From: Podarcis gaigeae
Taxonomy: Eukaryota
Length of the DNA stretch: 64,000 bases
Assembly: GCA_964106915.2 (NCBI GenBank)
Contig: OZ066915.1
Reading direction: 5' to 3' (one strand)
Position numbers and translations under genes: made by a program. Below, one piece after another: positions 29,301-62,742 of this stretch (the stretch's first letter is position 1; every line of letters starts with the position of its first letter). The notes beneath the pieces are model-generated. The model was given only the letters and a program-made list of their open reading frames with translations. It was not told where the DNA came from and did no database searches.

Positions 29301-29402
29301 TCATTGATTCAGTTCCAGCGCCCAGACCTGCTGAGGCCAGCCAGTCCTGCCCTTAAGCCGTTTTTCTCCGTGGCCTAAAGCGTGAGAATAGCCCTCGGTC
29401 TG
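29301..29402 (-). CDS. HAND1: HAND1 exon 2 (C-terminal HAND motif)
   Basis: Polypyrimidine tract + ttgCAG|CAG acceptor; [33 protein letters not shown]-stop. [12 protein letters not shown] is the HAND1 C-terminus (HAND2 has WPQHVWALELKQ). Missed by the ORF track. Confidence 0.97.
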
Positions 29403-35006: not shown

Positions 35007-35642
35007 CGGCTGCTCGCGCTTCCTCTTGGCGGCGTCGCGGGGCTCGGCCTTCTTGAGCTCGGCCTTGAAGCCCTCGGCGGCCGGCCCGTCCTTGGCCAGC
35101 ACCTCCATGAGGTAGGCGATGTAGCTGGTGGCCAGGCGCAGCGTCTTGATCTTGGATAGCTTGGTGTCGGCCGGCACGTTGGGGATGCACTCGCGCAGCT
35201 CGGCGAAGGCGCTGTTCAGGCTCTCGGTGCGGCGGCGCTCCTTGCGAGGCGCTCCGGGCGCCGACGACGAAGACGCACCCCGACGGCGCGCCGCGCTCAG
35301 CCGCCCGCCCAGCTCCGACGGGCTGCCGCCGTACGACGAGGCGGGCGAAGCCGACGAGCCCAGCCCGGCGGCCGCTGCAGCCGCTGCCGCGGCTGCCGCG
35401 CACACCAACTCGGGAGGAGGCGGAGGCGGCGGGGAGAGGTCGGAGGCTGCGCTGAGCAACCAGCCCTGCGCGAAGGGCCGCTCGGCCGGCGGGAAACATC
35501 GGCCGGGGGCCGGCGGAGGCGGCGGTGCGGGCGGCCCGAAGAGGAACGGCTCGTGGTGCGGGTGGTGGGGGTGGAGCAGCGCGCCGTGGTGCGGGTGGTG
35601 GTGGGGATGGGGGTGGCCCTGGTAGCCCCCCACCACGTTCAT
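35007..35642 (-). CDS. HAND1: HAND1 exon 1 (His-rich N-terminus + bHLH)
   Basis: gccgtcgccATG Kozak context; [68 protein letters not shown] (212 codons) then CCG|gtaagg donor at 35006; intron 29403-35006 (5604 bp); adjacent to SAP30L as in other vertebrates. Confidence 0.98.
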
Positions 35643-35672
35643 GGCGACGGCGGCGCCCCCGAGTCTCCGGCG

Positions 35673-35687
35673 CTACGAAGAAGCCAT
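35673..35687 (-). other. Upstream ORF (MASS*) in the presumed HAND1 5'UTR
   Basis: ATG GCT TCT TCG TAG ending 30 nt before the main ATG, downstream of the TATA-like box. Confidence 0.55.
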
Positions 35688-35816
35688 GGGAGGCTCGGCC
35701 CCGAGGGGCGCCCACGCTGCGGGCGCGCCGTCCAAGTTGCGTGGTCCAGCGGCGCGCTCCCTCTCTGCCGCGCTCGCCTCAGCCCTCCTGCTCTGCAACC
35801 AGCAACTCGGCCGGCC

Positions 35817-35846
35817 TTTATGCAGCGGTGGGCTCTTTGATGTCAC
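35817..35846 (-). promoter_or_regulatory. HAND1 core promoter: CATAAA box plus overlapping TCF/LEF (ATCAAAG) and CRE-like (TGACATCA) sites
   Basis: Minus strand GTGACATCAAAGAGCCCACCGCTGCATAAAGG, ~175 nt upstream of the ATG inside the CpG island. Confidence 0.65.
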
Positions 35847-38800: not shown

Positions 38801-39565
38801 CAATTCAAGGCCAGGAGTGTTGTTGGACACAGCGACTGGCAGTGCTGGCTGAGGCTCACAAAAGTAGCTTGAAAGCCTTATCCTCTCACTTGTCTCCAGA
38901 AGCATAGGATTTTCCACATATAACCTGCTTCTATACAATATGGTCCATCACTCAACCACCATCCGTTGTGTGATCCAAGGATGGCTAAACTGTGGCCCAC
39001 TCATTGTTTTTTGTTTTAATTAAAGTTTTTCTTGAGTTACAAAAGCACATCCATCATCTCTATTTTCAGATCCTAAACTCCTTTCTACTGATCAGTTATA
39101 TTTGATGTGAGACGTTGATGTTGTTGGCCCTCTCAATGTTGTTGGAGTCCAACTCTCCTCAGCACCAGTCAGCATGGACAAAGGAGGGAGTGGGCATGGT
39201 CAGGAGTGGGCAGCACGATGGACCATGTGGCTCCTGAGGTGACCGCATCTGTGATGACACAGATCCACCCTCCCTCTCCCACCCTCAAGAGATTCTGGGC
39301 ACCTTCTGCTGGAATTTGGGGGTGCGGGTGGCAACAGGGGAGATCCAATAAGAAGTGTATGTGCTGGTTTATATGGACGAACCCTCCTTGTTCCCTATCA
39401 GCCTGGTCCCTTTTAGCCAGACACATGCCTCTGTGAAGCCCACAGTCCTCCCCTGTGGCCCAATACAGCATCTGGAATGAGTCAAAGCACACTCTTCTTG
39501 TGCCAAATAATCCTTGATAGGCCTAACCTATAGTCCCTCTTTTAAAGTCATCTAACTGCAGTCCT

Positions 39566-39915
39566 AGGTGGCGCTGTGGGTTAAACCACAGAGCCTAGGA
39601 CTTGCCAATCAGAAGATCGGCGGTTCGAATCCCCGCGACGGGGTGAGCTCCCGTTGCTCGGTCCCTGCTCCTGCCAACCTAGCAGTTCGAAAGCACGTCA
39701 AAGTGCAAGTAGATAAATAGCTACCGCTCCGGCGGGAAGGTAAACAGCGTTTCCGTGTGCTGCTCTGGTTCGCCAGAAGCGGCTTAGTCATGCTGGCCAC
39801 ATGACCTGGAAGCTGTATGCCGGCTCCCTTGGCCAATAAAGCGAGATGAGCGCCGCAACCCCAGAGTCGGTCACGACTGGACCTAATGGTCAGGGGTCCC
39901 TTTACCTTTACCTTT
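39566..39915 (+). mobile_element. Sauria SINE
   Basis: Head GGTGGCGCTGTGGGTTAAA...GGTTCGAATCCC (A/B boxes), tail (TTTACC)n, 13-bp TSD TAACTGCAGTCCT (39553-39565 / 39916-39928). Confidence 0.93.
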
Positions 39916-42900
39916 TAACTGCAGTCCTGTGTCTGTCTAGGCAAGCTCCATTGAGTTTAATTAAACCTACCTCTCATTAAGTGTGCATAGGATTGCATCC
40001 TAAACCAATGGCCATGCCCAATGGCTTTTAGTGCTGTTGGCTCTACTACCTCCAGTATTAAAGGAAGGAGGCCTCTGAATATCAGCTGCCGGGCATCCCA
40101 AGAGGGAGTGTGCTGGGGGTGCTCATCTCCTGTTCCTAGTCTTCCCAGAGGCATCTGGTGGGAAGGACTCTTTTTATGTCCTTATCACATCTTGCGGCAG
40201 TGAATAGTGAATTTCACAAGTTGGATGATAGCAACATTAACGGCAATGAAGAATAAAATATTCTTCACCACACAGCCGGGATCCAGCCTCAGAACCTGTT
40301 TGCAACTTCGTTTGGTGTGATGACGAGGAAAGGTAAGAGTGCCTTTGAACGTGGGCAGTATGCTGAGAAGCCAGCCAATGGTCCTCAGATGGTCCGGATC
40401 GGAGTATATTTGAGAAGGAAGGTTTTCCCCATGAGGACGGTCCAGTATTTCAGGAGCTCTCTCTAGAAGCCGCCATTCCCTCCACACTTTCAGAGCGCAA
40501 TGGGCTTCGCCAGCTCTTTTCTACACGAAAGCCCTGAAGCCCGGTCGAGGCCAAAGAACTGCCTTGAGTCCCTCCAGCCCCTCTAGCAGTCGAGCCAGAA
40601 AGTACAAAAGCAGCAGCATTTGCTACTGGACGGAGAGGGGATTTGGAGGACCTGCAGCTAAAGAGAAAGGAGCTGCGAGAGACTGGGACCAAGGTCCGTC
40701 AGGGAAAGCCACGCGTAGCCCGGGGACTGGTGGCTGAAAGGGTCGCTAGGGTTGAGAAGGAGCCCCCAGTGAGAGGGGCCTCACCTCCACCTCTAGGTCG
40801 CTTCCCACTAAGATGGCGAGGCCTGAAACCGCTCTGGGTGCTGCAGATTCTCACAGAAGTCAGTGGAAGTGTACGCACGGAAGTGGTGCCACAAGAGCAG
40901 AACTTGGGCGCAAATGCCCTGGCCCAGTTTTGCTGAATGAGCAGGAAGACAGCAGCCGGGCTGGTTTATGGCCTTTGCAGTAAGGATGACGGTAAAAACA
41001 TTTCCTCTCAGAAGAGCCCCCTCCCACAAGACCACGAGAAGCAAGCAAAGTAATAGGCGCACATTGTGATTTAAAGAGGGACCCGCTCTCTTTAGCCCTG
41101 AATCTAAAATTAATTAATACAGCCGCTGGGTAGCTGGAAACAGAAGACCCATCCTGGAGCAGAAGATCTCCCGTATCAGCGCACCCAGCCGTGGTTATAT
41201 CAGTTTCAATCAGAAAGGCTGTAGCCCTGCGCACATTGATTTGGGAAATAAGTCCTATTTAATTGGGGGTCGGGGGGGCTTACTTTGGAGTAGACACGCC
41301 TAGGATCCGCTGCAAGTGTTTAGACACACTGAGCTATGAGCCAGGTGACTCTCACCTCAGTAGCCATAGCCTGATCACACCAGGCTTCTGATCTTCCTGA
41401 CGGCATGGCTTTTAAAGACAATCCGGACAGTGAATAAGAAGCGCTTTGAGCACTTTGCGTCCCCAAGTAAAATGCAAAGTATTGTCGCTCTTACCGGTTC
41501 TGCGAAACCAAGCGCTGTGTCTGGCTTAGAACAAGCCTTCAAGCGTTAATAACACCAACATTTAAACATTGTGACATCCCCAATGTTAATGATGTTTACT
41601 CGGAAGTGTGTCCTGTAAACTGAACGGAGTTCATTTCCTCCCAGTTACGGGCCTGCTCCAGAACGCAGCTGGACACCTCGATCCTGAAGCGCCTTCGCTG
41701 GGATCTACATCGTAATAAAAATCTTGGACTAATTTCAAAATGGGTGGTCCTTCATACAATGACTTGTAGATCATCTTGATCTTTTGGGAAAGCGTCTAGA
41801 CAAAGTAGGCTGCCATCCAATGCCTTAGCTACTTGGAAGTTGAGTCCTATGGTACCCCCTAGAATCTACAGCAAAGTCAATGCTCTTAGGATCGCGCTGC
41901 TCTTTGATTAGTTCAGGATTGCAGCGTGATCATGTTTGCCCACAAAGAGGGGACTTTAGGTGTGGCGGGCGTAGGTCTATGACAAACACCCTTCCCCAGT
42001 ATAATAGTATCCCAGCATATTTATTTAACCGGTATGGTTAAATTACCCATTAATGCATTTCCGATTTCAAATGTACAATTGAACGGGATCTGTCTCCCGC
42101 GACGAGACGTATTTAGGATGGACTTGCTGGAAGTGTTTATGTATCTAAACGGTATCCAACCAAAGTAAAGGAGACTGATTTCAGTAAAAAAAAAGATTTG
42201 GGTTTCAACTCTCCCACTTAAATTAGTGAGATTTAAACGCGTTCAACTTCAGCAGGATAGGGTTCATTCTTTACTGACCCATTTCAGCTGAAAAATGAGC
42301 AGACTCAATTTTTTTTAATGTAGAAAGACACACTGCACCTGTCGTTTTCCTCGCCAGTTTCACCTGAATTAAGACACAAGTTGTTATTATTACGTGCGTA
42401 AGAAACTAAGAAAAGCGCTACAGGGATGGGTCAGACCAAAAGACCTATCTAAGCCTCTGATCCCGTTCTGGCTTTGGCCAAACAGATAGCTCTGGGAAGC
42501 CTCGAGCACTGTGGCAACGACCCTCTCCCCACGCGTGTCCGTGAGCGACTGGCATTGTTCTGTTTTCGAGAATGGAGTGACTATCTCGCCATCGTGGCCA
42601 GCACATTCACTTTTATGACGGGATGGCTCCATTGAATGATGAACTATCTGGGACCTTCCTCTAAGGCGGCTCAGAAACGAATCTCTGGATCCAGAACCAG
42701 GTGAAGTTGGCAAGTTGTCTTGCTCTAAGGTTACACTCCTCTGCGCCCAAGTAAGTTCCATTGAACACAGCGGGACTTAACTCTTGAGCGCGCGTCAGAT
42801 TGACCTGTACAGTTAGGGACTGGTGGGAAGTTAGTCCCACTAGAATAATATCCACCAGGGGCGGGGGTAGCCGGACTCTCAAACACCTTTCAACTGCGGG

Positions 42901-45900
42901 CATTCCTCGTGCATTATTATAATATATAACCCAAAGAATAAGTGTTCCTGTTTACCTCCCACCTCGCAAAAAACACAGTACCGTCGCCTCTCCATCCAGG
43001 AGCTTCCGCGCCTACGTGGTGGCCACGCCGGCTTAGATGGGATCCGGATCGGAATTCTCGCCTTGCAAGGTTGCCTTCCTCCTACCGTCCCCAATGAAAT
43101 CGGCCGGTGGTTTCAATCTCTCCGGCTGTCCCGAGGAGCTTCGGAGGACGGAGACCGAATGGTCTCAGCCAGTCCTTCAGAGTGACTTCTGCAAAAATTG
43201 ACGCGGCGCATTAGAAGAATTGGGTAGCAAGCGAAGGCTGCGATCTGGAGGACGCTTACCCGGGAGTAAACCTCACTGAGTACAGCGGGACTTGCTTCTG
43301 AGTAAAATAATGACGACGACGATGATAAAAATAATGCACCTGATTGTTTTGTACATGACATTTCTGGAATAGATGCGGCGAAGCGCTCCGGGACTACAGA
43401 GATCTCCCTTAGACCGGCAAGGCATTCCCGTTTACTATCCAGAAGGGAATTCTGGTTCGCATGAATTGCAAAGAGATATTGAATAAATTCCTCGTTTCCT
43501 GCCAGGATGTCTTTGGTTCCCCAAACTCCTGTGGAATTTGCAGGAGGCAAAGCAGCCTGCGTTGAGTGCCGTTTAATTTTATAGCAATTATGTTTGCTCT
43601 AGGCGCAGATTGCCCGTCATTTGTTTCCTTCATGTAAAATCGAATAAACGAGCAGACTGACCGCCTACTTTTGTGTCTTTAAAAATTAGGCATGTCTAAC
43701 TCGATCAGCCCGATCCACAGCCCAGATAAATCGAAATGATCGAATCGCAGCACTCGGATTCGAAATACAGACCTCACCGAAACACAGCTGAATTTATTTC
43801 CACGTTAAGCGTGCTGATAAAAGCAACCTAAATACGTTACGTTGAAATAAATGTCAGTAAAATGAATGGAATCTGCTTCCGTGTATCTATGTAGCTTTGT
43901 ATATGTTTAGTAATTAGACGTGTGCATAGCCCTTACTTGGGTTGAACTTGGCCGGTATCGTTTGTAGTTTGTACCACTGCATTAGCTGCCTACTGTGGCT
44001 AATTTGCCTGGTTGTAAATCCTATTCCGAGCAATGGGACTTACTTCCAGGTTGCCATGTCCAGTACTGGGGTACTAGCTCCTCTTAAGCGTTTGCTTTAA
44101 AAAATAACTTTGCAAATAATGGACGGTGTACTGGAAAACAATATAAATTGTATTGTTTTGTATATGTTTTTTTATGACGGGTAAACATTTCACACCGCTC
44201 TAGTGTGCATGTCCGCCCTATAGCTGCTGGGATTTAAAAAACAAACTCGTATTAAAACAAATCAGAATCTCAAAGAATGCGGAGGAAAAACGGCGTTTTA
44301 GAATAATCTATTTCCAGAACTCTGTGTGTGAGAGAGAAAGAGATTGAGAGAGTATGAGGAGAGACAGATAGGTTTATTTTTAATATGTCAATTTTAAAAT
44401 GTACTTTCATTTATTAAATATATTGCTCTTATGAACATTCACGACTGTTTTTATTATGTAGAATTACATGCCAGCTGTCCCATTTCTGAAGAGACCGAAA
44501 AGGGCCGAAGCGCCACTCATTGCGGAGGACAGACAATTGTGAACCCAGGAGACAATGGCTGCGGGTGTCTACATTTCTGGCAAGAAGAGTTGTGCTGGTT
44601 GCTAAAGGACCAACGCGACCTGTGCCAAAAAGTGCGGTTTCTCTCCAAAGTGTTGCGCACTGGTTTTTTGAAAAGTGCTTTGAGTTTGTTTCTTTCTTTC
44701 TTTTCAACTTTTGAATCAGAAATAGCCCCCAAAGGGGAGGGGGGACCCCGCGAGGTTGCCTGCAACACGCACCCACCCCGCCCTTATTAAGTCGCTGGAG
44801 CAGCGAGGTATGTTAACGATTAAATCGTTTTCAAAGGCTTAATCTTGCCGTTTAGGGTGGAAATGTTTCAAGGTTGTTTCTCAGGCGCCTTATATTAATC
44901 ATCCAACCTAACAGTCCATTAATGTCCATTTACATTTTGGAGATGACAAATTTTATGTGACTTATTTCAATCACAGCTCCGCCAGAAGTCTCCAGCGGAT
45001 TCGGTAGCCACTTAGAGGTCGGGAGAGCTGCCTCCTTATTTGTTACCAAAGGCGTTTAAAAGCCACTAAGACTCGGCTCTAAACCTCCCTCTACAGCTGA
45101 TCGGGAACAATCGGATTTTCCCTGTCGCAAAGGCCATTAAGCTGCGGAAAGAACAGCGTGCGACGCTGTGGCTTGCAATCTCTCTCGCTCTCTCTCGCTC
45201 TCTGCAGCCTAGCCTTTGACTAAAGAAAAGAGGCGCAAGAATCAGGTTTGTATTATAGGACTTTCCTCCCCGCCCCTCTAGCGCACTCCCTTTGCCTTTG
45301 TTCTCTCGCCGTGCTAAACCCTCCCCACCCCACCGCACCCCATTACGACCCCCTTAAACCAACGAGGTGGAAACATTTGTTATTCATTACTTGCCCATTT
45401 CCATTTGGTAACTGGGGAGGGGGGAGGAATTAAACCGAGGAAGGGTGAATATCCCGCTTTCTTCTGCATTAAATAATATAAATAAATTTGCTGTTATCAT
45501 CCGGTCACTTTTAAGCCCCATTGATTTCATCTGGTGAAAGGGAACCCAAGGCTTAACTCTTCTCACCGAAACCAGCGGGGTGTGAACGCGCTTCCCTTTG
45601 ACTGGATCCTGGCGTCATGATCGTCCTGCGTGATTATTAATATCTGATGGGTCTCTAGGACGCGCCGGGCATCGATCCGACGGGACGGACCGGGGAGATA
45701 AATTTCTAGCCTGCCCTCGACGTTGGGCGCCGCCCCGCCGCTTTGGATACGTCGAGAGGTCCTCCAAAAGTTTTCCTAGTCAGGGTGGCATATGCTCTTT
45801 ATTAAGGTCTGCATTTAAGGATTGTCACGGTTAACCTGCCGCCATCCGAAGGAGGCTTTTCCTTTTCCAAGGGGGAGGCACGTTTCTCATTAGAGTTTCC

Positions 45901-46225
45901 CAGGGGAGCGAGAGAGACCCACGTCTGGCGATCTGGGCTCTCCCTCCTCCTCGCCAGGCTGCTGCTGCTCCCCTCCTCGAGACGAGGATGAGGACTTCCA
46001 TCAAATAATGCTTAGGGAAGAGGCCGAGCACCCGGGCAAAGCTCTGCAGTGCGCGCTGCCACCAAGCGGGCTCCTTCCTCATCTGGCAGTCAGGTAGGGA
46101 GGAAAGGCAGCTGGTCCCCCTCTCCCGCCGCACCGCCTTTTCCATTCACAGAGAAAGGAGCGAAATCGAGCGTTTGCAGAGCGCCAGTTAACGCGGGTCA
46201 CACACGCGCGCGATCTCTGCCCCCA

Positions 46226-46344
46226 GAGGTTCCTAAGCAGAGGTTGGATGGCCACCTGTCATGGATGCTTTAGCTGAGAGTTCTGCATTGCAGGAGGTTG
46301 GACTAGATGACCCTCGGGTTCCCTTCCAGCTCTACGATTCTATG
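46226..46344 (+). mobile_element. CR1 LINE 3' end
   Basis: AGAGGTTGGATGGCCACCTGTC...GGTTGGACTAGATGACC...CCCTTCCAGCTCTACGATTCTATG, the canonical CR1 terminus. Confidence 0.85.
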
Positions 46345-47477
46345 GTTATTATTATTATTTCTCAATGTATTCAGTTTAGGAACACAGGAAGTGGCTTTAG
46401 GAAGAGTCACCAGACCATAGCTCGGGATGGTCTACTACACTGTCTCCAAGATTTCAGCCTGGATACAGGAGTGAGCTACTGATCGCCCCCCGCCGCCCCA
46501 CGGGAAAGGGTGCCGATCCTACGAAAAAAGTTGCCTGCCGTGGCTCACAGTGTTTACTCGGAAGCAAGTTCCGCAGATGTCCCCGGGTCTTCCTTCCGAG
46601 TCAACGCGCTTCGCCTTGCCGCTGCATCCGGATTCCATTCCCTAGCAGGCATTCCCTCTTAAAACAGGGAAGAAAAATCTCTGGGATTTTAAACCTCTGG
46701 GATTTCTGACTTGCAAGTTAGGCTGCAGCACCCCACCCCTACCCCTGTAGTCGCTTTTCCTGTCCCTACGAACTCAGTAGGGTTACTTTCGAGGAGCTGC
46801 CTCTAGTATTGCACTGTAGAGGTGTACTTTCGGATCCATGTGTACGAAAGGCCCCTTTCTCCCTCCCTCGCCCTCTTGGGGGCTAGTCTCCCACCGCGAT
46901 GCCACCCTCCTAGTGCCACCCCCTGCAAACCGACCGGGAGTTCCCCGCATCGCTCCGTTTGTTCCCCCCCCCCCCAAATGGTCAGCCGCTGGCTCTGGAG
47001 GGAACGAATCAGGTCCAGTTATCTAATCGTAATCGTTGGCCCCAGACCAAGAAAGCTACAGTGAGTCTGTGCCTAAGGAATCTCATTGATAAGGAAACCA
47101 CAGCGTGTTGCCGGGAAGGGGGAGGCCCGATGGGGGGGCATTTTTTTGAGCTGGGGGAAGGTTATATAATACGTCATCGCTTTAATCTCCAAACTGAGCC
47201 ACCACAACTCTTGAGTCAGAAAGAAGATACTCTTCAAAGGGTCTGGGGTGTCCCACATTTCTTTCCAGGTGGTTCATATCCCCCCCCCCTTTCAAAACAG
47301 TTACTCTTACCGTTTAACTGATGAGGATGATTGCTGTTAACTTTTCCTGCTGCATTCCAGTCCTGCTTTACTGATGATGTACAGTATTCTTGTTTTTGTT
47401 TTTTTAAAATGTTCTGATAGTCCTAAATATATTTCTCATATATTTGGAAGGCACCTTAGAGGTCAATTATACCATGC

Positions 47478-47940
47478 TTTTTAAAAAAAAATAAATTACT
47501 TTTTAAATTGATTTTAATGTCACCAGTCAACAGTATAACAAAACAGATAACATACATAAAAGAAAGCATTTCTATACATAAGAAATTCCTTCCACTTATT
47601 ATGACTTCCAATCTCCCCATCATGGGTTCCAAGTTTTCTTTATCAACTGCATATTATTTATTATCTAACTTAAGTTTATCCGAAATATCTATAATTTATA
47701 TATACTTTGCAGGAGTCATTCAAAGCATGCCAAAGATTTCATATGATTACAACATTCTTTTAAATATAATCTGTATTTATCCCATCCTCTGTTGAACCTC
47801 TGATCCGATTGGTTCCTAATTCTCCCTCTCATTTTTGCCAGTTCTACATAATCCAATAATTTCAACTGCCATTCCATTTTCGTTGGTATATTCTCTCCCT
47901 TCCAACCTTTGGCTATTAGTGTTCTTGCAGCAGTGGTTGC
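47478..47940 (-). mobile_element. Older L1 3' end remnant
   Basis: Minus strand encodes YVELAKM..IRNQSDQRFNRGWDKYRLYLK (with a frameshift), paralleling the C-terminus of the young L1 copies; A-rich tail. Confidence 0.6.
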
Positions 47941-48319
47941 ATACCTGTATGCATTTATATACTGTGCTCAATGCAGGATGCAGCTACAGCATCCCTGACC
48001 AATGGATGCCCAGCCCTTGTTCCCTCCAATGAAGCAGCTTTTTTATTGAACAGCAGCATTCATTTGTTTATTTAACAACATTTATATGTTACTCCCCTCA
48101 CCTAAAGTTTTCTGGGTGCCTTACAATAAAAAAAATAGTATGATGATGATTTATGTACAAAAGAAGACATAAAGCCATCAAATACAAGTGAGATATAAAG
48201 TACATAAATTGATTAAACAAAGTAATAAAGTTACAACAGGATTAAAAATACAATAATAAAGGAGAGGTGGAAAGGGCTGCAGCCAGACAGGAAACTGCCT
48301 TATGTTGAGCCAGGCCTTT

Positions 48320-49225
48320 TTTTTTTTTAAAAAAAGAATTTTTATTAGAGTTTCAACAAGTTTTTATCATAACAAAACAAAACAACACAATAACAGACAA
48401 AAAACAGTATAAAACATAGAAAACAAAAAGAAGCATATAAATTCAAATCTTAATTTCTTATAGCTTACTTTCCGACTTCCTCGCACCTCCCCTTTCTGTA
48501 TTCCAATTTCTGATTTATTTTCAGCAAATCCTTCCTTTATTTTGACTGATTTTAATATTGCTTATTTTCTTTTAAATTAACCATTACCGCTACTAACCAC
48601 TTATCTTCTAATCCCCCGTCATTTTAACATTGATTAATTTTGCTATATTTCTTTACTTATTACTCATAAAACATTTTTGCATATTCCTTTCAACTATGCC
48701 ACTAATGCCGCACTATCTTTATATCCTGCATCACTTTAACATTCAAATATTTTGCAATGTTTTTGCAGATAGTCCTTAAATTTCTTCCAATCCTCTTCCA
48801 TTTGTTCTTCTCCCGTGTCTCGGATTCTGCCAGTCATTTCTGCCAATTCCATGTAGTCTATGAATTGCATCTGCCATTCTTCCAGGGTGGGCAAATCTTG
48901 TGTCTTCCAGTACTTTGCGATGAGTATTCTTGCTGCTGTTGTTGCATACATAAAGAAAGTTCTATCCTTCTTTAGCACCATCTGGCCGACAATGCCCAAG
49001 AGAAAGGCCTCTGGTTTCTTAAGGAAGGTATACTTAAATACCTTTTTCAGTTCATTATAGATCATTTCCCAGAAAGCCTTAACCTTTGGGCACGTCCACC
49101 AGAGGTGAAAGAATGTTCCCTCAGTTTCCTTACATTTCCAACATTTATTATCAGGCAAATGGTATATTTTTGCAAGCTTGACTGGTGTCATGTACCACCT
49201 ATAAATCATTTTCATAATATTTTCA
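48320..49225 (-). mobile_element. Young 5'-truncated L1-clade LINE (ORF2 C-terminus + 3'UTR)
   Basis: ORF 48736-49215 contains the CCHC knuckle CWKC..EGTFFHLWWTC; poly(A) tail; 18-bp TSD ATGTTGAGCCAGGCCTTT (48302-48319 / 49226-49243). Confidence 0.92.
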
Positions 49226-50582
49226 ATGTTGAGCCAGGCCTTTGTTCCATCAAGCTCAGTATTGTCTACACAGGCTGGCAGTGAATTTCAGACAGAAGTC
49301 TTCCCTGCAGAGGCCATGGCTAGAACCTGGGATCTTATGTAGATGTCTGTCACTGGGTGGAGATTTAGGGGCTCACAGTGCAAATTCTGGTACTTATTTT
49401 CTAAATAAGCTCAGCATCAAACCTTTCTGTCAGTCACAATGTCTAATGTGAAAGCTTAATCCCACATACAAAGGTGCTGACTATGTTTACTTGGTGACGG
49501 AGACATACCTAGGATCCCTTGTGCCCTTGGCAAGGAGCCCCTCCCCAAAATCACTTTACCACATAGCCACATTAGAAATAACTAGGGACCCAAGTACTCA
49601 AAGTGCTGTCCAGAGTGAGGACGAGTCAAGGAGTAAGGACAAAAAAAAATGTGGTGCGAGAAAGACGACAAGCTTCTCCTGCATTCAATCTTGCTGTGCT
49701 GGTGACATCGCATTGCCACACACAAATGTGTCACACACTCCTCGGTTTGATATGTGACTTTTGCACCTTCTCCCTGGGCTTTCACCCTTGGCGGGGGCCA
49801 GTTTCACCAATCCCTAGGTATGCCTCTGCTTGGTGGTGCGGGAAAGCTGCTCTGCACATGGTCAGAAACACCTTCTTTGTATTACTTGCCATGTTCCAGG
49901 CAGCAGTGAGCCCTACACTGAATACAAGCTGAGAAGAGACTTCTGAAGAGTGCTGCATAACCCTCTGTACTTGGAATGAGTCTCACGGAGTTCATTGTTG
50001 CTTACTACTTTGTACGTGTGCAGAAATTTGATGCCCCGGAGTTCTCTGGAGTCTATTTCCAAACTTCGCACGTAGGAGGAAGTGCAATTATCCATATGCC
50101 TGCAACAGATAAATGCTAACACTGGGATCATCTGCACAAACTGCACACTCCTATTCAAAATATATTATATACAAATGCACATGTCTGGAAATGTTAATCT
50201 GTATCTGTTTTATTTACTTTTTCTATATCATATAGATAGAAGGAACATCATCAGCCCAAGCATCACCACTGCAAACATTTTGTCAAAGTGTTGCTTTGTG
50301 CATGAATCAGTCGTAGGAGATTCATTCTTAGGTTATTTTGGTTTCACATTTGTTCTGGGACAACTGATGGAAAGCATTATTAAAGATAAAATTAACATAT
50401 ATTCTATATTCAAATAATCTATATTAATATTGATGGTATATCAGAGAAAAACAAGTCTTCCTAAAGAGGAATCAGCATGGCTTCTCCAAAGGTAAGTCCT
50501 GCCTCCAACAGTCTTTCAGACTTCTTTGAGAGTGTTCAGAAGCATGCGGACAGAGGTGACACTGTACAGTTCCCAGCAATTA

Positions 50583-50808
50583 CAGTGGTACCTCAGGTTA
50601 AATACTTAATTCATCCTGGAGGTCCGTTCTTAACCTGAAACTGTTCTTAACCTGAAGCACCACTTTAGCTAATGGGGCCTCCTGCTGCTGCCGTGCCACT
50701 GCAGCACGATTTCTGTTCTCATCCTGAAGCGAAGTTCTTAACCGGAGGTAATATTTCTGGGTTAGCGGAGTCTGTAACCTGAAGCATATGTAACCCGAGG
50801 TACCACTG
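50583..50808. mobile_element. Tc1/mariner-type MITE, copy 5
   Basis: TA TSD, same TIRs and interior. Confidence 0.9.
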
Positions 50809-52779
50809 TATAACATGCTCATTGGGTAAGGAAGAAAGTAGACATGAAAACCTGCCTCTTTAGAAAGGTGAGAGGTGGTGGAAGGACTTGATTCTGTGAC
50901 ATCTGGTATTGTGAGCACTCAGAGGCAGTTGGGACTGGTCCCTATGGGGATTGGTGGGGTGGAAGGTAGGGAGACCAATAGGAGGTAGAGTCAGAGTCAG
51001 TGGCTGATGGAGCCACAGGCAATGACAGGCAGAGGCAACTAATTCTGGTTTGGTCCCCATCACAGCACGGGCTGAGGAGGAGGAGGAGGAGGATGACAAG
51101 TAGTGCTACCTTCTAGACTGGTTATGAGACAAGTAGGGGGCCAGCCAAGAGGAGGCTGTGCCCCATTCATACTAATGGATCAGCGTCCACTGATCAGAGG
51201 AGTGAATTCTCCTGCTCCTACCACAGCAGAGCCATGTTGGCTACCAGAGACAAGGCTCTATGCTGTTTCCTAGGATCAGAGGCAACATGTCACTGAAGAC
51301 TAATTGCTGGGAAGCAACAGCAGAGGAAGGCCATTGGGCTGATGTCATGCTCATCGGCTTCCCAAAGGCATGTGGTTGCCCACAGAAGGCTAGATTAGTT
51401 AGGCTTTTGGTCTGATTCATCAAAGGCTCTTCTTCCATTCTTTAGTTGAACACACCAGCAATAGGTGGGGATACAGACATTCTTAAATTGCCATTGCTAC
51501 TAATAAAAGTCCTCATTCATTTTACTAATTTATAAAATTGCATATATCTTTATATCTTATGGTCTCAGCCAGCAAGAAAATTCCAAGCTGCTATGACTTA
51601 ACCATGGCCCCATTCGGTGACCTTGGAGGCTATCACCTGAATAAATACAGAGGGAAAGCCATGTCTCCCAACTTTCACTTAGCAACAAAGACAGACTTCT
51701 TTTTTTTGGTTCAACACCTTCTAAATTCAGCCAGCAGGCTTGCTTTTCTTAGCACCTTTCAAGCTCCTTTGGAAAAGTCTATCCTTGCAAATTTATGGGG
51801 TAGAGAACTCTTCGGAGGGCTCTCTCTTCAGACACCTGCTTTCTGTCCAAATCCTTCTAAGGAGAGTTTCATGTGTCTTCTCAGTACAGCATTGGCCTGG
51901 GTCAATCAGGCATAGACATCATCTGATTTCTTTGCACTTAAGGACTGTACACATGGTGACTGGGAGCTGACTTTGTGCACTGCCTCCACTGTAAACATGG
52001 CATTTCAGTGTTATGCAGCGAATATCCAAATTCTTTCTGTGACACAGGATTGCACTGGCTCATTTGTACTTGCACATTACCGCTTGATCCTTGTGGAACA
52101 TACCAGCAGCATTAACTTACACAGAGTCTGCTTTTGTACAGTAATTATATTCCCATGTATGGAGTTCACCTGCAGATGACAGTTTCATACTTTAGCCTAC
52201 CTGATTCCTAGGAAAACCACAACACTGAATACCATCTGGATAGCTGTAGGAGGCTTAAAGCAAGGAACCAATGTGTCCATGCCATTTACCAGGCATAGCA
52301 GTCAACTCCTAGGGGCAGTGGGAACTTTGGCCCCACAAGTAAAATATTTTAGGGGTCAAGGCCCTCCCAAAGTTAATGGACATTGCCATTGGAATGGCGT
52401 GTGTGCACTGTGTCATGTGATCGCTTATGTGGGGGGGGGGGAGGTAAGCCTCGCCCCCATATTTTATTCAAGTTGGCACCCTTGATGGATATGGTAAAGA
52501 TTGCTCCCAGCAGTGAAGTGGGGTTTTTTATCGCTGATTAAGTTGCACGGTCGTACACCTAATAGAAGACTTCACTTTTGTTCAAGACCCTCAGGCGCAG
52601 ACACTAAAAACAATAAATATTTTTTTGCTCCAACACCCCGACCCATATCCCGTTTTTGCCTCTTCATTTCCCATTCATATTCAAAAGAGAGCCACACAAA
52701 GGAATGCAGAGCCAGGGGTGACCCTTAATCGGCTAAAGAGTTTGGTTGTGGGTGAAGCAAGACCCAGACCTAAATCTCA

Positions 52780-53530
52780 CGCCCAACACTCGAAGAGCCC
52801 CTGGGCAGATTGCGCAATCGACCACCCAAAGCTAGGAAAAAGCGCAGCAGCCCATAGACAATCCTCGCACCTTGTCGAGGTCGCTTTTGATTGGCCTTGG
52901 GGGAGAAACTCCATTCCTGCCTTGACCAATCGCCGGCTCTAGCGCCGAGACGAGGCTTTCCCCTCCCTTCTTCGCCTTCTCCTTTTCCTTCTCAGCAGCG
53001 CCTCTCGTGGCCGGTAACGGCGGGACACTGTTGGCTGCCTCTTCCAGAGAGCCGTAAGCGGAGTGTCCCGAAGGAAGGGCTGGTTGGTGCTTTTGCGCCG
53101 GAGGCGGCATTCTTGGGCGGCGTTTACGGCGCCTCCGTAACTGCTGCTGCTGTCCGGCGGAACGTCCGCCCTGGCACGCCCTGCGACCTTGACGCCACCG
53201 CCAATCCCTTCTCCGGACACCGTTATCTAAATAGGGCCGTAAATCAGGCACTTGTCTGATCGCGCGCCATTGCAGGGGCTCCGTAAAAAAAAAGCGGGCT
53301 CTGCGGCGGCGATGTTTACATTGCAGCTCCGTAAACTATTCCCCCTGTCTTTTGTATTAGCGTCTCACTGCAACATCCCGTAAATCAGGGGCCTTCAGCG
53401 TGAGGAATGGCTTAAAGGTCTTACATATTTTTGGAGGCATAAATAATGTCAAATTGGTTTCCATTATGCTGCGAGCTCGAGGATAAGAGGAGGAGGCCCT
53501 GACTTACGGGAAGATCGCACCTAGCGCCTC
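52780..53530. promoter_or_regulatory. Distal CpG island / candidate HAND1 enhancer with HOX/CDX-type motif cluster
   Basis: Isolated CpG-rich block; 8x CCGTAA, 2x TGATTTACGG, GGCGCC, GATA, FOX and two CCAAT motifs. Confidence 0.65.
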
Positions 53531-53547
53531 GCATGAAAAGACACGTG

Positions 53548-53685
53548 GTCATAGAACTGTAGAGTAAGAAGGGGACCATGAAGGGCATCCAGTCCAACCC
53601 CTTGCAATGCAAGGATCTTTTTGTCCAGTGTGGGATTCGAACCCTCAACCACGAGGTTAAGCGTCTCATGCTCTACCCTCTGAGT
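53548..53685 (-). mobile_element. tRNA-Lys-derived SINE with CR1-like tail
   Basis: Minus strand: GGTAGAGCATGAGACGCTTAACCTC..GGTTCGAATCCCAC (tRNA-Lys-like) joined to GGTTGGACTGGATG..TTCTATGA (CR1 3' end). Confidence 0.8.
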
Positions 53686-53870
53686 ACAATGCTAGCCATG
53701 GGTACCCTCAACCTATAGGTTTTCAGGCATGGTTGGTAGGATGCCAAGGCTCTTGGAAGTTTCAGCTTCTGAAGTTACTTATGGAGCTCAACCCTGCAAT
53801 CCCAATGAAATGCTTTTATAAAAGTCACTCAGGTGCTAGACTCTAGAACTGGTATAGGTGCCTTTTAGTA

Positions 53871-54102
53871 CAGTGGTACCTCAGGTTAAGTACTTACCGA
53901 TAATTCATTCTGGAGGTCCGTACTTAACCTGAAACTGTTCTTAACCTGAAGCACCACTTTAGCTAATGGGGCTTCCAGCTGCTGTTGCGCCGCCACCACA
54001 TGATTTCTGTTCTCATCCTGAAGCAAAGTTCTTAACCCAAGGTACTATTTCTGGGTTAGCGGAGTCTTTAACCTGAAGCGTATGTAACCTGAGGTACCAC
54101 TG
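53871..54102. mobile_element. Tc1/mariner-type MITE, copy 6
   Basis: TA TSD, same TIRs and interior. Confidence 0.9.
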
Positions 54103-56359
54103 TACTGTAATTTGCTGCCTGAAATGGGCTATGGAGAGTGTCTGCTCCCCACCACCCTAGATGGCCTCACTGGTTGAATGCCAAACTGGTATTTGTGCAA
54201 GAACATAAGAGCAACTTTGGTTAACTTAGAGGTAGGTGAATAAACCGCATCCTGTTCTGTTTTGACGGCTTTGAAAGAGACAAGGTGGGGCTGAGGATGT
54301 GTGGATTTTGTTACAGGATGATCAAGTGGGAAGATCCAGAGTTGGCTCTTCTGCTGCTGGATCTGTCTGGATCTTGGATTGGCATAAAAGGTTTCTGTTC
54401 AAAAGCCATTCCAGCTGAAGAACCCTGGTGTGTATGTTAGTTCAGGACTATGTGTGTGTTTGTGTAGAATACACTTGTGTATGTACACACAAATGCACAC
54501 AGAGATCTGAATCAGAGTGGACAGTCATATTTCAATAGTGGCATAATAGTAGGTGTACCTGTGTGGTTTCTTAAAAGCCTGATAAGTTCCTAGCTTGAAG
54601 AGTCTTCTGTAACACTACCTCTGGTCTGTCCGTCGTCCCCCCCACATTTGTTTTAAAGTGAAATTAAAAAGATATGCATCGAGAATGGCTGGTGGTCCGA
54701 AGGAGTTCATCCAGTCACTCAGAAATAAAGTTTGCCTTTGCCAGTTACCACTACAAATCCAGCATCTTGGACATTAGTCTGGAATGTGTCTCTGAAAAAC
54801 ATGATCTGAAACACATTACCGTCATGACAGTACAGTACAAATAGACATCACAATAAGGCAGCTAACACGACACTGTTATCTGTCACTCTCCCATGTTTCT
54901 TTTTGTCTGTCAAACTCTAGCAGCACAAGTGTCCCAAACCTAGTTGCTTTGGTAAAAGAAAAGCCAATAAGGTCATCTTGATTAAATATCAAAAGCCAGG
55001 GTGTTCCTTCCCCCTGCCCCCAAATATCTGAAAAGAAAATAGAATAAATGTTAGTGGGCGGACAGCTCAGAGTTTTAAACGGAAAAGGCAGACTCAGCTC
55101 CACTGTTGAGGGCCTTCAGGAGTTTTGATCTAGTAGGGCTCCGTAGCAGTCATGAGATGGAGGACAAAGATCTGGTTGATGAGAGGTGTGCAAACTAACC
55201 AAATGCACCAGAGCACCGAGTACCACCACAGGCACTCTCATATTTCACACAAGGCTTAGCAAAGTTGGGGACAAAACATCACCTCTCCATGGCTGGAACA
55301 AAGATCACAGCTCAGAGACCCCTTCACTTTTGCAAGAGACTTCTGGACCCTGTTCTCACCACTGGGAGTTTCCCTTGAGACGTACATAACAGCTCCAGAG
55401 AGGTTTTTTCCCCCTGGTGTGTGTGTGTGGATTGTGCCTGGGGGAGAAAGAATTGAATTCCACTGATTAGGGATGTCCAGATGCAATTTTACATACATAT
55501 GTATATATGTATGTAAATTGTTTTAATGCAATTAGCACCAGGTCTAGTTTGGCATTGGCCAGGTCAGAGATAATATGAGTGCATTCCAGTTTGGCTGGAT
55601 GCCATGAGGAGGGGCTACTTTCATGGTATTGACTCTTGGTGGCAAGGTCCCTTAACAGTTCAGGGTCCTGACCATAGCTTAGCCCTGCTGACCTCTGGCT
55701 GTGGCCGGAGGACTTCACACAACTGAAGGGAGGGTGGCAAATCTTTTCCCTATTTCCCATATGGACCTGCTTTCATTTCAGGATTATTTTTATTTTAACC
55801 AGATTTAATATACCACTTGATTGTAAATAGAATCTCTTGAGCAGTTTACAAAAAAAAAAATTAACTTTAAGACAGAGTTTAAAACATTTTTTTTAAAAAT
55901 GCAAAGAATGTATAAAAAGCTTTAAAAAGATTAAAACATATAGTGGTGTCTACATGTCTGAATAGACTTGTCTGAACAGAGTGTTCCTACCCACTGAGCG
56001 AGTGCTGAAGAGTGCAGTGCTTCTGAGTAGACCTGGTTAGGATTGCAGCTTATGTTTGGTGCATTAATTTTAATAGGTCTGCTCTGAGTAAAACTTAATT
56101 GACTAGCACCCATGGACTTTTAAAAGCATAAGAGGTGATAAAGGTCTTCATGAGGCATAAAAAATAACCCACTCCTATCATGGGCATTAAGTGAGCATCT
56201 TTAAGGAGAGCATTTCCGAGACACCACCACTGAGAAGGCTATGTATGTATGGGTTTTAGTACTTAAAGCCAATTCACATACAACCATTTTGTACTGTTTG
56301 TTGTTAGATGTTTGCATTTAACTGCCTGGATTACACTGAGCAGTAGCACATATCAAGTA

Positions 56360-58299: not shown

Positions 58300-60005
58300 C
58301 ACATTTAGAATTCCACCCCCCATCCTGTTTTAAGAAATTGATTTTTCTTGACTGGTCAAGCTTTGCAACATTTTAAAAAAGGACCAAAAACCCTAATTTA
58401 GCTAACTGGATCAATGATGCAATTACATATAAATAAATTGTAAATAATGGTCATTGCAGAAAAATGGTTGGGATAACAATAAGAATATAACCAAAAATAA
58501 TATGGTGAGAATACTGTCAAGTTGTGAGAAAATAATTTATAAGAAGGAAAATCTGAAGGGGGTTATTTCTAAAATATATGGTTTTTTTCCTGAATACTTT
58601 TAAAGCACATTTGGGTAGAAACCTTAAGGGAAAATGTGGGTTGACCAATTTTTGAACAAGAATTGGATTTTGTTTTGTTTTTACTCAGGAAACAGCACAC
58701 TCTCTTTCTGCTAACATGAGAGAAAATCATTACAAATTGCTATTTCAGTGGTATATGACCCCAGACAGAATTAGCAAAATTTATACTATCTGTGGTGGAA
58801 AGTGTTGGAGATGTGGACATCTGAGGGCAGATATGGAACATATTTGGTGGACTTGTCCAATAATTTAAAACTTTTGGGGGAATATAGTAAATATGATAAC
58901 ATTAACTACAACTTTCACTTTGCCACTGGGGTTAATATGGAATATAATTGTATTTTTTTTTTAAAAGAATTTTTATTAAAGTTTCAACAAATTTTATCAT
59001 AACAAAACAAAACAACACAATAACAGACAAAAAACAGTATAAAACATAAAAAACAAAAAGAAATATATAAATTCAAATCTTAATTTCTTGTAGCTTACTT
59101 TCCCGACTTCCTCACACCTCCCCTTTCTGTATTCCAATTTCTAATTTATTTTCAGCAAATCCTTCCTCTATTTTGACTAATTTTAATATTGCTTATTTTC
59201 TTTTAAATTAACCATTACCGCTACTAACCACTTATCTTCTAATCCCCCATCATTTTAACATTGATTAATTTTGCTATATTTCTTTACTTATTACTCATAA
59301 AACATCTTTGCATATTCCTTTCAACTATGTCACTAATGCCGCACTATCTTTATATCCTGCATCACATTTAACATTCAGATAGTTTGCAATGTTTTTGCAG
59401 ATAGTCTTTAAATTTCTTCCAATCCTCTTCCGTTTGTTCTTCTCCTGTGTCTCGGATTCTGCCAGTCATTTCTGCCAGTTCCATGTAGTCTATCAATTGC
59501 ATCTGCCATTCTTCCAAGGTGGGCAAATCTTGTGTCTTCCAGTACTTTGCGATGAGTATTCTTGCTGCTGTTGTTGCATACATAAAGAAAGTTCTATCCT
59601 TCTTTAACACCATCTGGCTGACAATGCCCAAGAGAAATAATATGGAATATAATTGTAGCTGCTTGCATGCTTGTTGCATTGCACCAAAAAGGGAAAACAG
59701 GTCACCACCAAAATTAAAGGAATAGTTAAAATAAAATTTGCATGGCAGCAATGGTGCATAAGCTTACTCAACTGATTACAGTGAGGGAAAGCAGACAAGA
59801 AAGAGAAAAATGTAAAAATAAATGGAAACTGTTTTCTAAATTTATGAAGAATAAATATAACATAAATATGGATGAATATGATAGTTTTTCTATGTAGTAA
59901 TATGTTAATTATAATTATAATGCATTTATTGCATGCCTCTATTTTGCTATGTTATGTATAGGTGTGTGTATGATTTAATGAAGTCAAATTTTTTAAAATA
60001 AAAAA
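58300..60005 (+). mobile_element. Old degraded L1 3' portion, interrupted by a younger L1
   Basis: 58719-58859 translates RENHYKLLFQWYMTPDRISKIYTICGGKCWRCGHLRADMEHIWWTCP (CCHC knuckle); similarity resumes after 59657; A-rich end near 60005. Left boundary approximate. Confidence 0.75.
58953..59637 (-). mobile_element. Young 5'-truncated L1-clade LINE, sister copy of 48320-49225
   Basis: Near-identical to the first copy; 20-bp TSD TAATATGGAATATAATTGTA (58933-58952 / 59638-59657). Confidence 0.92.
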
Positions 60006-60347: not shown

Positions 60348-61920
60348 AGTCTAACAAGGAGGAAGAGTATGCTTTGCAGGAAGAAGAGATCATGTCCTAA
60401 AACCATTTGCTAGTTAGGTTGAAAACTGAAATCAGACAAAAACAGTGCATCAGCCTGAATTTCACACTGGACAATAGCACCATACCTGTGGTAGTCGAGT
60501 CATGTGCTGAAAGGTTGTCATCTGTAGCCTGCAGAAACTATTGCTAAATCTTTTATAGATTTCAGCTTCCTGCAATAATCCATGACTTTTGGTGAGACAT
60601 CACAACTGGTACATATATACACTAGCAAATCACCTAACATTATTTACAGCAATAAGCATTGTGAGTAACTGGGATCCATGTAAAGGAAAACTAGCAAGAG
60701 GCACTGGTGCAAATGGAATATTTATTGTCCTGTTTAATGCATCAGCACAGTCTGGGAATCTCTCTTCATCTAGGGCAATCAAAAATAACCTCGCTTTTTT
60801 GTAACCAAGCAATACTTCCTGCAAGAGGAACCATCTTGGTGTGTCTGATTTTTTTACTGCTTCCTGATGAAAGTTATTAGGCCTGTCCTTTTGTATAATA
60901 AAAATGCACTGTTCTACAGTATGAAATTCATATTAGCTGTTCTGTTGTTGTTGGACTTGAGTGTTCAGCCAGTTTTTACATATGCTGGATTTTATTATCC
61001 TTTAAAACTGATGTTTGTTGCTCACTTCAAATTCTAGCCAAAGATAGTTTAGGAGAATCTGGCAAATTGCTTTGGCTAATAAACTAACCCACCATAGCAA
61101 ACTGGTTAGCTGTGTCACAAAGAAGGATTTTGTCATGGAGGCACGGTTTCTGTTTCTCTCCAATGTAAACAAAGGCACCCTTGGGCTCCCCACCTCATAT
61201 TCCTTATTTTGGAGAGATACTCTTACCTTGAAGTGTTAAATATGTTGTAATCTCCCAACTTTCTTTACCTTCACGAATTCTTCATTTGAACATCAGCTGA
61301 CAGGGCAAATGTGTGAATACACCAGCACTTGGTTTGGATTCATTGCTTATTGCAATTTTGCATCTTAAACACATAATAGAAACATGAACAATAAGAAGCA
61401 GGAGGAAAAGACACTCTGCTATCATTGTCTATATGGTGGTAGTATTTACAAATCTAAATGGGACCCATATAAAACAGGCACAAGAAGATGAAATGACTTC
61501 CTTATCAATAGGGGGCACATACTTTCTGGATAAGCCACAACTCTTGATCCCTTTCCCAATTTTATGTTGTACGAACAAATTAACATGAGACTAATCTATG
61601 ACATTGCCATGCCAGCCCCGCTTCCCCCTGCCCACTGAAGTCCCTAGATCTCCATGACCCACTTGTGCACGTTGTCCTCTTAAACCACTTTGATGGGGTC
61701 GTGGGGAGGTAAAGTCTGAAACTTGAGGAAGAGTAGGTAGTAAGAAACTTTGTGGGAGCCTGCAAACCTCCACCTGGAAGAGAGCCCCAAATGATCCCTC
61801 CCCGCAAGAACACACTACCTTGTGGCATCAGCAGCTGTTCCTCCACTTTCCATTTTCATATTTGCATGTCTAATAACCAGCACACCTCATTCTAAGGAGA
61901 GGGGGCAAACATAGCCCTAG

Positions 61921-62273
61921 TGCTGGAGGAGACTCTTGAGAGTCCCATGGACTGCAAGAAGATCAAACCTATCCATTCTTAAGGAAATCAGCCCTGAGTG
62001 CTCACTGGAAGGACAGATCCTGAAGCTGAGACTCCAATACTTTGGCCATCTCATGAGAAGAGAAGACTCCCTGGAAAAGACCCTGATGTTGGGAAAGATG
62101 GAGGGCACACGGAGAAGGGGACAACAGAGGACAAGATGGTTGGACAGCTTTCTCAAAGCTACCAGCATGAGTTTGCCCAAACTGTGGGAGGCAGTGGAAG
62201 ACAGGAGTGCCTGGCGTGCTCTGGTCCATGGGGTCACGAAGAGTCGAACACAACTAAACGACTAAACAACAAC
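61921..62273 (+). mobile_element. RTE-BovB LINE 3' fragment
   Basis: Encodes WRRLLRVPWTARRSNLSILKEISPECSLEGQILKLRLQYFGHLMRREDSLEKTLMLGK..WRALVHGVTKSRT, the BovB ORF C-terminus; (CAA)n tail. Confidence 0.95.
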
Positions 62274-62374
62274 AATAACTAGCACACCTCATTCTAAGGA
62301 GAGGGGGCAAAGACTGCTGTACTCATAGCCCTAGAAACTAAAGGTTAAGAATGAGGGTGGGTATATGGGTGTCA

Positions 62375-62742
62375 GGGACGCAGGTGGCGCTGTGGGTTAA
62401 AGCCTCAGCGCCTAGGACTTGCCGATCGAAAGGTCGGCGGTTCGAATCCCTGCGGCGGGGTGCGCTCCCGTCGTTCGGTCCCAGTGCCTGCCAACCTAGC
62501 AGTTCGAAAGCACCCCCGGGTGCAAGTAGATAAATAGGGACCGCTTACCAGCGGGAAGGTAAACGGCGTTTCCGTGTGCGGCTCTGGCTCGCCAGAGCAG
62601 CGATGTCACGCTGGCCACGTGACCCGGAAGTGTCTCTGGACAGCGCTGGCCCCTGGCCTCTTGAGTGAGATGGGCGCACAACCCCAGAGTCTGTCAAGAC
62701 TGGCCGTACGGGCAGGGGTACCTTTACCTTTACCTTTACCTT
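62375..62742 (+). mobile_element. Sauria SINE (full length)
   Basis: GGGACGCAGGTGGCGCTGTGGGTTAAA head, (ACCTTT)4 tail, TSD TATATGGGTGTCA (62362-62374 / 62743-62755). Confidence 0.94.

Follow-up and report, generated by a model that had tools for sequence, protein, structure and literature searches.

The window analysed here, a stretch of 64,000 nt of Podarcis gaigeae DNA (contig OZ066915.1 of assembly GCA_964106915.2), contains upstream of HAND1 a probable orphan CpG island of promoter type that carries a homotypic cluster of the hexamer CCGTWA. An earlier note, prepared from the sequence alone, had drawn attention to eight CCGTAA motifs in this region, and the observation is real, and somewhat stronger and wider than first described. 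Because ten copies of one six-letter motif stand beside promoter-like signals, the island is probably a regulatory element, and we judge it on balance probable that its cluster functions as an array of binding sites, read either by posterior HOX/CDX homeodomain proteins or by a non-HOX factor. The single account that we favour, tentatively, is of a promoter-type orphan island from which an NF-Y-started transcript may issue and whose CpG-containing homeodomain sites would be weak and assisted by PBX, with an action on HAND1 as the part inferred most weakly.

The island and its promoter-like signals

CpG islands are delimited by a length of more than 500 nt, a GC content of at least 0.55 and a CpG o/e of at least 0.65, and the segment of 785 nt at 52761–53545 lies above all three values (Table 1). 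It sits within a block of about 1.06 kb (52486–53548) that is single-copy in the window, and CpG density over 52400–53700 rises and falls in a smooth, bell-shaped manner with no sharp edges; the decay products CCATAA and CTGTAA do not occur in 52700–53545. The CpG o/e is 0.22 for 1–27.5 kb, 0.68 for 27.5–47.3 kb (the part that includes HAND1), and 0.22 for 47.3–52.5 kb. The island itself has 0.96, and the DNA beyond it, as far as 62.3 kb, has 0.18. Since the ratio drops to 0.22 over 47.3–52.5 kb, the island is detached from the 20 kb CpG-rich domain of HAND1, and about 5 kb of CpG-poor DNA lies between the two. A SINE-like copy at 62380–62737, outside the HAND1 domain, serves as a control, and this young copy has an o/e of 0.87 in a CpG-poor background; CpG richness is therefore no proof of an unmethylated island, and a young insertion could mimic one. 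The smooth CpG profile argues that the island is old, and so does the absence, among the ends examined, of TIRs and of TG..CA ends with a target duplication.

The opposed CCAAT boxes to which the earlier note pointed both agree in full with RRCCAATSR, which we take to be the NF-Y consensus; the two in the island compare with a shuffle mean of 0.10 (P=0.005, post hoc), and there are eight such boxes in the whole window. With these two full boxes and a palindrome that is presumably a C/EBP-type site, the island looks like a promoter. The NF-Y pair and the palindrome are accompanied by a pyrimidine tract, and the ten T(A/T)ACGG sites then follow downstream. The tract can alternatively be read as a splice acceptor, as it ends in AG. 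A weak hint of direction comes from A(A/T)TAAA, which is absent from the plus strand between 52612 and 54239 and occurs once on the minus strand, at 52468. Orphan CpG islands are promoters that lack an annotation, or else enhancers that share features of promoters; the present one resembles them in its sequence composition, in lying away from identified coding starts and in its NF-Y boxes, and is unlike them in the unusual density of a single motif, ten of its 60 CpGs falling within CCGTWA.

Table 1. Features of the island, its boundaries and the nearest identified gene, with positions in the window
Feature	Position	Strand	Remarks
Isolated CpG island	52761..53545		GC 0.564, 60 CpG, o/e 0.96
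Perfect 12 nt palindrome GATTGCGCAATC	52808..52819		P ~0.03 in shuffles, post hoc
CCAAT box 1	52888..52896	-	Full RRCCAATSR
CCAAT box 2	52924..52932	+	Full RRCCAATSR, opposed to box 1
Pyrimidine tract, candidate initiation zone	52956..52995	+	Directly downstream of the CCAAT pair; YCTYTYY at 52981, presumably of initiator type
Site 1, CCGTTA	53015..53020	-	Fits MYB YAACKG
Site 2, CCGTAA	53052..53057	+	Also C/GTAAGC, 5' splice-site-like
Sites 3 and 4	53124..53140		Inverted pair TTACGG-CGCCT-CCGTAA, overlapping GGCGCC at 53128-53133
AACGTCCGC	53161..53169	+	Sole copy in window, post hoc; presumably HINFP-like
Third CCAAT (CCAATC)	53201..53206	+	Flanks imperfect; not listed in the earlier note
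Site 5, CCGTTA	53220..53228	+	Overlaps TTATCT (GATA, chance level)
Site 6, CCGTAAATCAGG	53237..53248	+	Opposite strand TGATTTAC, posterior Exd-Hox 8-mer
Site 7, CATTGCAGGGGCT-CCGTAAA	53268..53287	+	
Site 8, CATTGCAGCT-CCGTAAA	53319..53335	+	Abutted by TGTTTAC at 53313-53319
Site 9, TCCCGTAAATCAGGG	53376..53390	+	Opposite strand TGATTTAC; STAT M67 core with 1 mismatch
Site 10, TTCCCGTAAGTCAGGG	53497..53512	-	Matches site 9 at 14/15 in inverted orientation; STAT M67 core TTCCCGTAA exact; plus strand reads TGACTTAC; also donor-like C/GTAAGT
Left boundary, repeat-like element	52290..52485		Weak terminal similarity, no second copy found in window; presumably a lacertid MITE
Right boundary, tRNA-headed SINE-like repeat	53549..53684	-	More copies in window; tRNA match weak (53630-53685, E 3.9); SINE family presumed
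HAND1 coding exon 1	35007..35642	-	Nearest identified gene; ATG 17.2 kb from island

The CCGTWA cluster

All eight CCGTAA motifs counted in the earlier note are present at the positions and on the strands assigned to them (53052+, 53124−, 53135+, 53237+, 53281+, 53329+, 53378+ and 53504−), and only two others occur elsewhere in the window, at 20941 and 41645. The chance expectation of about 0.2 copies also holds, as dinucleotide shuffles of 52880–53510 average 0.23 copies and never exceed 3 (20,000 shuffles). Two CCGTTA sites (53015− and 53220+) had been overlooked, and the cluster thus becomes one of ten CCGTWA, against which trinucleotide shuffles of the island (5,000) give a mean of 0.51 and a maximum of 4; it is unique within the 64 kb. 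To allow for the post hoc choice of word, we note that at least eight copies of any hexamer arose in 28 of 20,000 shuffles, and at least eight copies of a hexamer with at least three different letters in 1 of 20,000. Among 202 real windows of 631 nt, the island window alone attains eight copies of a four-letter hexamer, the runners-up being seven-copy clusters of AACCTG and ACCTGA at about 21.4–21.7 kb that overlap a MITE copy near 21.8 kb. The tetramer CCGT continues as CCGT(A/T)A in all ten of its island occurrences versus 6 of 128 elsewhere (Fisher p=2e-11), where the comparison set is made up of three stretches leaving out 47301–52760, and where the ten include the eight sites that define the cluster, the new information being the two CCGTTA.

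The sites lie on both strands and their spacers are unrelated. Three of them (53237+, 53378+ and 53504−) extend to CCGTAARTCAGG (TGAYTTAC), and those at 53376–53390 and 53504− form a 15 nt inverted pair in which 14 of 15 positions match. The finer structure described earlier is largely as found here: the two identical 10-mers CCGTAAATCA are present and their identity in fact extends to the 12-mer CCGTAAATCAGG, the inverted pair TTACGG-CGCCT-CCGTAA does surround GGCGCC, and TTATCT (at 53223) and TGTTTAC (at 53313) are in place, as are the two opposed CCAAT boxes; the direct repeat exists too, its insertion being GGG and not the GG that had been reported.

The statement that the array is not a tandem repeat withstands scrutiny, since TRF reports nothing at the island and none of ten spacer pairs exceeds, at p<0.05, the similarity of local segments drawn at random, a comparison whose null is conservative because it was drawn from real segments of the same region, with overlaps possible. 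Flank comparisons fall at p<0.05 in 5 of 56 cases and in none below 0.02, and the CAYTGCA common to flanks is not significant, arising in about 22 % of simulations. A decayed tandem repeat of about 47 nt, which spacings of 44, 48 and 49 nt and the CAYTGCA flanks might bring to mind, is rejected on this spacer and flank test.

Origin of the block and candidate readers of the cluster

The block might derive from a transposable element or an endogenous retrovirus, as a 5′ promoter or sub-terminal region whose motifs would have served its own transposase or regulator, and which would now be either young or co-opted. We think this rather unlikely, even though repeats are found on both sides of the block (a repeat-like element on the left, SINE-like and MITE sequences that are multi-copy in the window on the right), the seven-copy AACCTG/ACCTGA clusters over a MITE copy point to transposon bodies as makers of such clusters here, and the young SINE-like copy keeps its o/e of 0.87. 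CCAAT and C/EBP sites are, moreover, common in LTR promoters. The block, however, has no second copy in the 64 kb, no Pfam domain in six frames over the island and gradual CpG edges, and neither TG..CA ends with a 4–6 nt target duplication nor a 12 nt TIR are seen between left ends at 52480–52899 and right ends at 53390–53559; two 11/12 inverted pairs beyond the SINE look like chance. Distinctly unlikely, in our estimation, is a neutral history in which short local duplications and inversions spread an inert motif through GC-rich DNA that was unmethylated for some other reason, such as an NF-Y promoter. Such a history would fit the shared flank families (CCGTAARTCAGG three times, the 15 nt inverted pair and the CATTGCAG direct repeat) and the placing of four sites at 44, 48 and 49 nt from one another, but the spacers are unrelated in both comparisons given above (at p<0.05, 0 of 10 for the pairs and 5 of 56 for the flanks), and intact hexamers among diverged spacers point to selection.

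The seven frames of the block that were scanned contain no Pfam family, two frames submitted to a word-index search gave no matches, there was no usable Atlas match, and none of six ATG ORFs (seven are listed) is present in the collection. A full-library protein search with a 167 aa minus-strand frame returned two unlabelled entries (best E 1e-13), to which we give no weight on either side as regards conservation or copy number. Searches for structured RNA were negative in Rfam at the gathering score (five weak matches, E 0.26–3.9, lie far below the cut-off) and in ARAGORN, and folding compared with shuffles gave z values of −0.30 and −0.44; nor was there any match pointing to a phage or plasmid origin.

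TTATGG and TAATGG are homeodomain cores, and each homeodomain-like site of the cluster is a CpG version of the usual form by a change of T to C (TTACGG for TTATGG, TAACGG for TAATGG), a reading that would unify all ten sites. The earlier note had proposed posterior HOX/CDX proteins with PBX, and of this the PBX-HOX 8-mer is present: TGATTTAC occurs twice and TGACTTAC once, against a shuffle mean of 0.02, the copies being perhaps not independent. TTTACG is found five times in the cluster. RTCA directly follows three of the eight CCGTAA (binomial p ~7e-6, which assumes independent sites, and since the three PBX-type sites share a flank of 12–15 nt local duplication may void that assumption), and A follows five of the eight (p=0.015), as TTTAC and TGAYTTAC predict. 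In the fingerprint of PMC4705621, TGATTTAC is an 8-mer of the posterior Exd-Hox class. On the side that is not supported, none of the ten sites is a HOXB13 or CDX2 optimum: they are devoid of the optimal monomer sites (CTCGTAAA, GTCGTAAA and C/GCAATAAA), with 1–4 mismatches to the HOXB13 or CDX2 optimum, and degenerate 9-mer seeds fit none of them exactly. TAAT cores are not enriched in the island (3 observed against 3.3 expected). TCGTAAA, CCATAAA and CAATAAA do not occur in it (one CAATAAA lies outside, at 52611) and GCATAAA occurs once, at 53437; the missing canonical HOX variants are weak evidence, since 0.3 would be expected by chance.

Single changes to TCGTAAAA lower HOXB13 binding by more than 70 % (PMC5896879), and CCGTAAA appears, from a figure legend in that paper, to be one such change. 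Methylation raises the affinity of HOXB13 for its CpG-containing optimum (PMC5896879), and so a tuning of the island sites by methylation is plausible in principle. In their copies of TGATTTAC, TGACTTAC and TTTACG, and in having a CpG where methylation helps HOXB13, the sites are like known posterior HOX/CDX and Exd/PBX-HOX sites (PMC4705621, PMC5896879), whereas the GC-rich setting, the lack of an optimum site or of TAAT enrichment, and the two TAACGG sites are unlike them. That ten sites should have one sub-optimal core in common is odd for HOX selection.

According to the tentative account favoured here, NF-Y at the CCAAT pair would keep the region open and start a candidate unannotated non-coding transcript, more likely directed toward higher coordinates, away from HAND1, although the hint is weak. 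Many copies of one factor would bind the cluster, the best named candidate being a posterior HOX/CDX homeodomain protein, with PBX assisting at the three TGAYTTAC sites. As CpG versions of T(T/A)ATGG cores the sites would be individually weak and would act by number, perhaps strengthened by methylation, and the element might act on HAND1 as an enhancer-like promoter, which is the least supported step. A bolder proposal, which we consider unlikely, is that the element is switched by methylation, so that the unmethylated island would be an NF-Y promoter and the island methylated in particular tissues would become a ten-site HOX/CDX-PBX platform acting on HAND1, or else that the cluster would belong to a devoted vertebrate CCGT(A/T)A factor as that at CHD4 belongs to ZNF410.

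It is possible, if somewhat doubtful, that the same promoter-type island is read by a non-HOX factor that requires the CpG and has CCGT(A/T)A as its true optimum; proteins of the SAND-domain, Myb-like or zinc-finger kind are examples. Such a factor would act like ZNF410 at CHD4, with one factor, a dense cluster and one target, and its occupancy would help keep the island unmethylated. TTTACGG is the core of the SP100 SAND array motif. The invariance of CCGTWA (10/10) while the next base varies and the lack of canonical HOX variants beside the cluster both argue for a reader of this kind, which with a CCGTWA optimum would better explain the uniformity of the sites, but the TGAY flank is then left unexplained; a factor with a CCGTAA optimum, SP100 included, was not found in the literature covered, from which subscription papers are mostly absent. 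Precedents for a motif cluster with a devoted factor are ZNF410 at CHD4 and ZFP64 at MLL (bioRxiv 2020.08.31.274324), and CG-rich motifs in CpG islands are bound by many factors that have received little study (PMC13538051). The text of the Codebook supplements (PMC13538051), file 13 excepted, contains no motif match, matrices and logos being material that would not show in text. The ZNF410 clusters at CHD4 (bioRxiv 2020.08.31.274324) are like that of the island in being dense and homotypic, in the rarity of their motif and in lying near a regulatory gene, and the island motif is unlike theirs in being 6 nt long and CpG-containing. ZNF410 itself is rejected as the reader, all ten sites having 3–7 mismatches of 12 to CATCCCATAATA; site 9 has CATCCC-TAA in common with the motif.

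A STAT- or MYB-responsive element is very improbable. The STAT M67 core is TTCCCGTAA (PMC6135694), which is exact at site 10 and one mismatch off at site 9, and both CCGTTA fit the MYB consensus YAACKG, yet eight of the ten sites are 2–3 bases off TTNCNNNAA, every one of the eight CCGTAA is one base off YAACKG, and the three YAACKG compare with 1.1 expected (P=0.10); as readers of the whole cluster both are rejected on mismatches at most sites. Three other candidates were also rejected, namely a splice-donor reading of CC/GTAA, which fits only two of the eight sites, ETS sites (CCGGAA, none in the region) and the CHR cell-cycle element (none found).

A homotypic cluster of this density can, as at CHD4, reveal a circuit of one factor and one target. 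If functional, the cluster would be a ready probe for the factor that reads CCGT(A/T)A and would offer a clean test of whether CpG methylation turns a promoter island into a homeodomain-bound enhancer, and an action on HAND1 would make it a candidate for a lizard-side change in how a gene that shapes ventricle and neural crest is controlled. If it is a transposon remnant, the cluster is ordinary.

HAND1 and the rest of the window

The gene that the earlier note took to be HAND1, with the island upstream of it, is correctly named: the minus-strand ORF from 35642 encodes an HLH domain and shares 99 % identity with the HAND1 of Podarcis lilfordi and 82 % with that of Elgaria, and on these grounds we assign it to HAND1. 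The associated claim of a BMP input fared differently. A GGCGCC and a GTCT 5 nt apart constitute the BMP/SMAD1/5 composite, and the GGCGCC of the island has no GTCT at that distance, the only ones in 53000–53400 being at 53254, 53347 and 53362. As the single GGCGCC proposed as a SMAD1/5 element is at chance level (P=0.47–0.56), and GATA is too (P=0.57 in the island), the BMP claim has no support; TGTTTAC gives P=0.03–0.06 in shuffles, post hoc.

BMP inputs to mouse Hand1 are described in the proximal 2.3 kb (PMC8465227), with BMP/SMAD input in the PA/OFT enhancer (PMC7344951), and the mammalian left-ventricle enhancer lies about 15 kb upstream and is GATA-dependent (PMC10777909, PMC5544250), while mouse also has a septum-transversum (ST) enhancer at about 34 kb and upstream lncRNAs that are called mouse-specific (PMC8147853). 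The island is like the mouse Hand1 distal enhancers (PMC10777909, PMC8147853, PMC7344951, PMC5544250) in its comparable distance upstream of HAND1, and there are upstream lncRNAs in mouse, which together with the several distal enhancers of mouse Hand1 speaks for the account favoured above; it is unlike them in that their described inputs are GATA, HAND2, DLX5/6 and SMAD, and in the portions of text on Hand1 enhancers considered here, alignment figures apart, a CCGTWA cluster is not mentioned. The full model of the earlier note, in which the island is a deeply conserved distal HAND1 enhancer that joins posterior HOX/CDX-PBX, BMP/SMAD1/5, GATA and FOX inputs, seems to us improbable. The position upstream of HAND1, the mammalian enhancer at about 15 kb (PMC10777909) and the BMP/SMAD responsiveness of Hand1 (PMC8465227, PMC7344951) agree with it, but within the island neither GGCGCC (P=0.47) nor GATA (P=0.57) rises above chance and TGTTTAC (P=0.03–0.06) is a post hoc finding, the known 15 kb enhancer depends on GATA (PMC10777909) where the island has one WGATAR, and a TAAT-rich block at 44.8–45.7 kb is more like a classical developmental enhancer.

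The TAAT-rich block (44780–45720) lies 9–10 kb upstream of HAND1, has 17 TAAT where 8.8 would be expected (P=0.006, post hoc) and contains TGACTTAT at 44958; it is a better candidate than the island for a classical conserved HAND1 enhancer. The CpG-rich domain around HAND1 extends over about 20 kb (27501–47300; o/e 0.68 versus about 0.2 outside), and presumably resembles the DNA-methylation valleys of developmental genes. Exon 1 of HAND1 (35007–35642, minus strand) encodes runs of His, Pro, Ala and Ser, and the closest named HAND1 protein has 245 aa, where most named HAND1 proteins of birds and mammals have about 200–220 aa.

Several repeats are dispersed through the window. A MITE of about 235 nt is present in six copies (53867–54106, 673–901, 16244–16506, 21797–22030, 23169–23397 and 50577–50824), which are 79–89 % identical to the copy at 53869 and have 27 nt TIRs and, internally, five repeats of AACCTGA type. 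Three copies of a presumably Sauria SINE-like element about 360 nt long (18690–19075, 39566–39926 and 62380–62737) have CpG o/e of 0.42, 0.82 and 0.87 respectively. Two related LINE-like 3′ fragments, for which a LINE family label is our assumption, flank the island at 48319–49287 and 58953–59637 (minus strand), the first without a Pfam match, and a 3′ fragment at 61921–62265 (plus strand), also without a Pfam match and which we take to be RTE/BovB-like, is flanked by a 38 nt direct repeat (61872–61909 and 62274–62311). A low-complexity open frame of 215 codons, rich in Ser, Gly and Glu and belonging to no Pfam family, lies over a small CpG-rich patch at 1681–2328 (minus strand), and a perfect 43 nt tandem duplication is located at 15165–15255.
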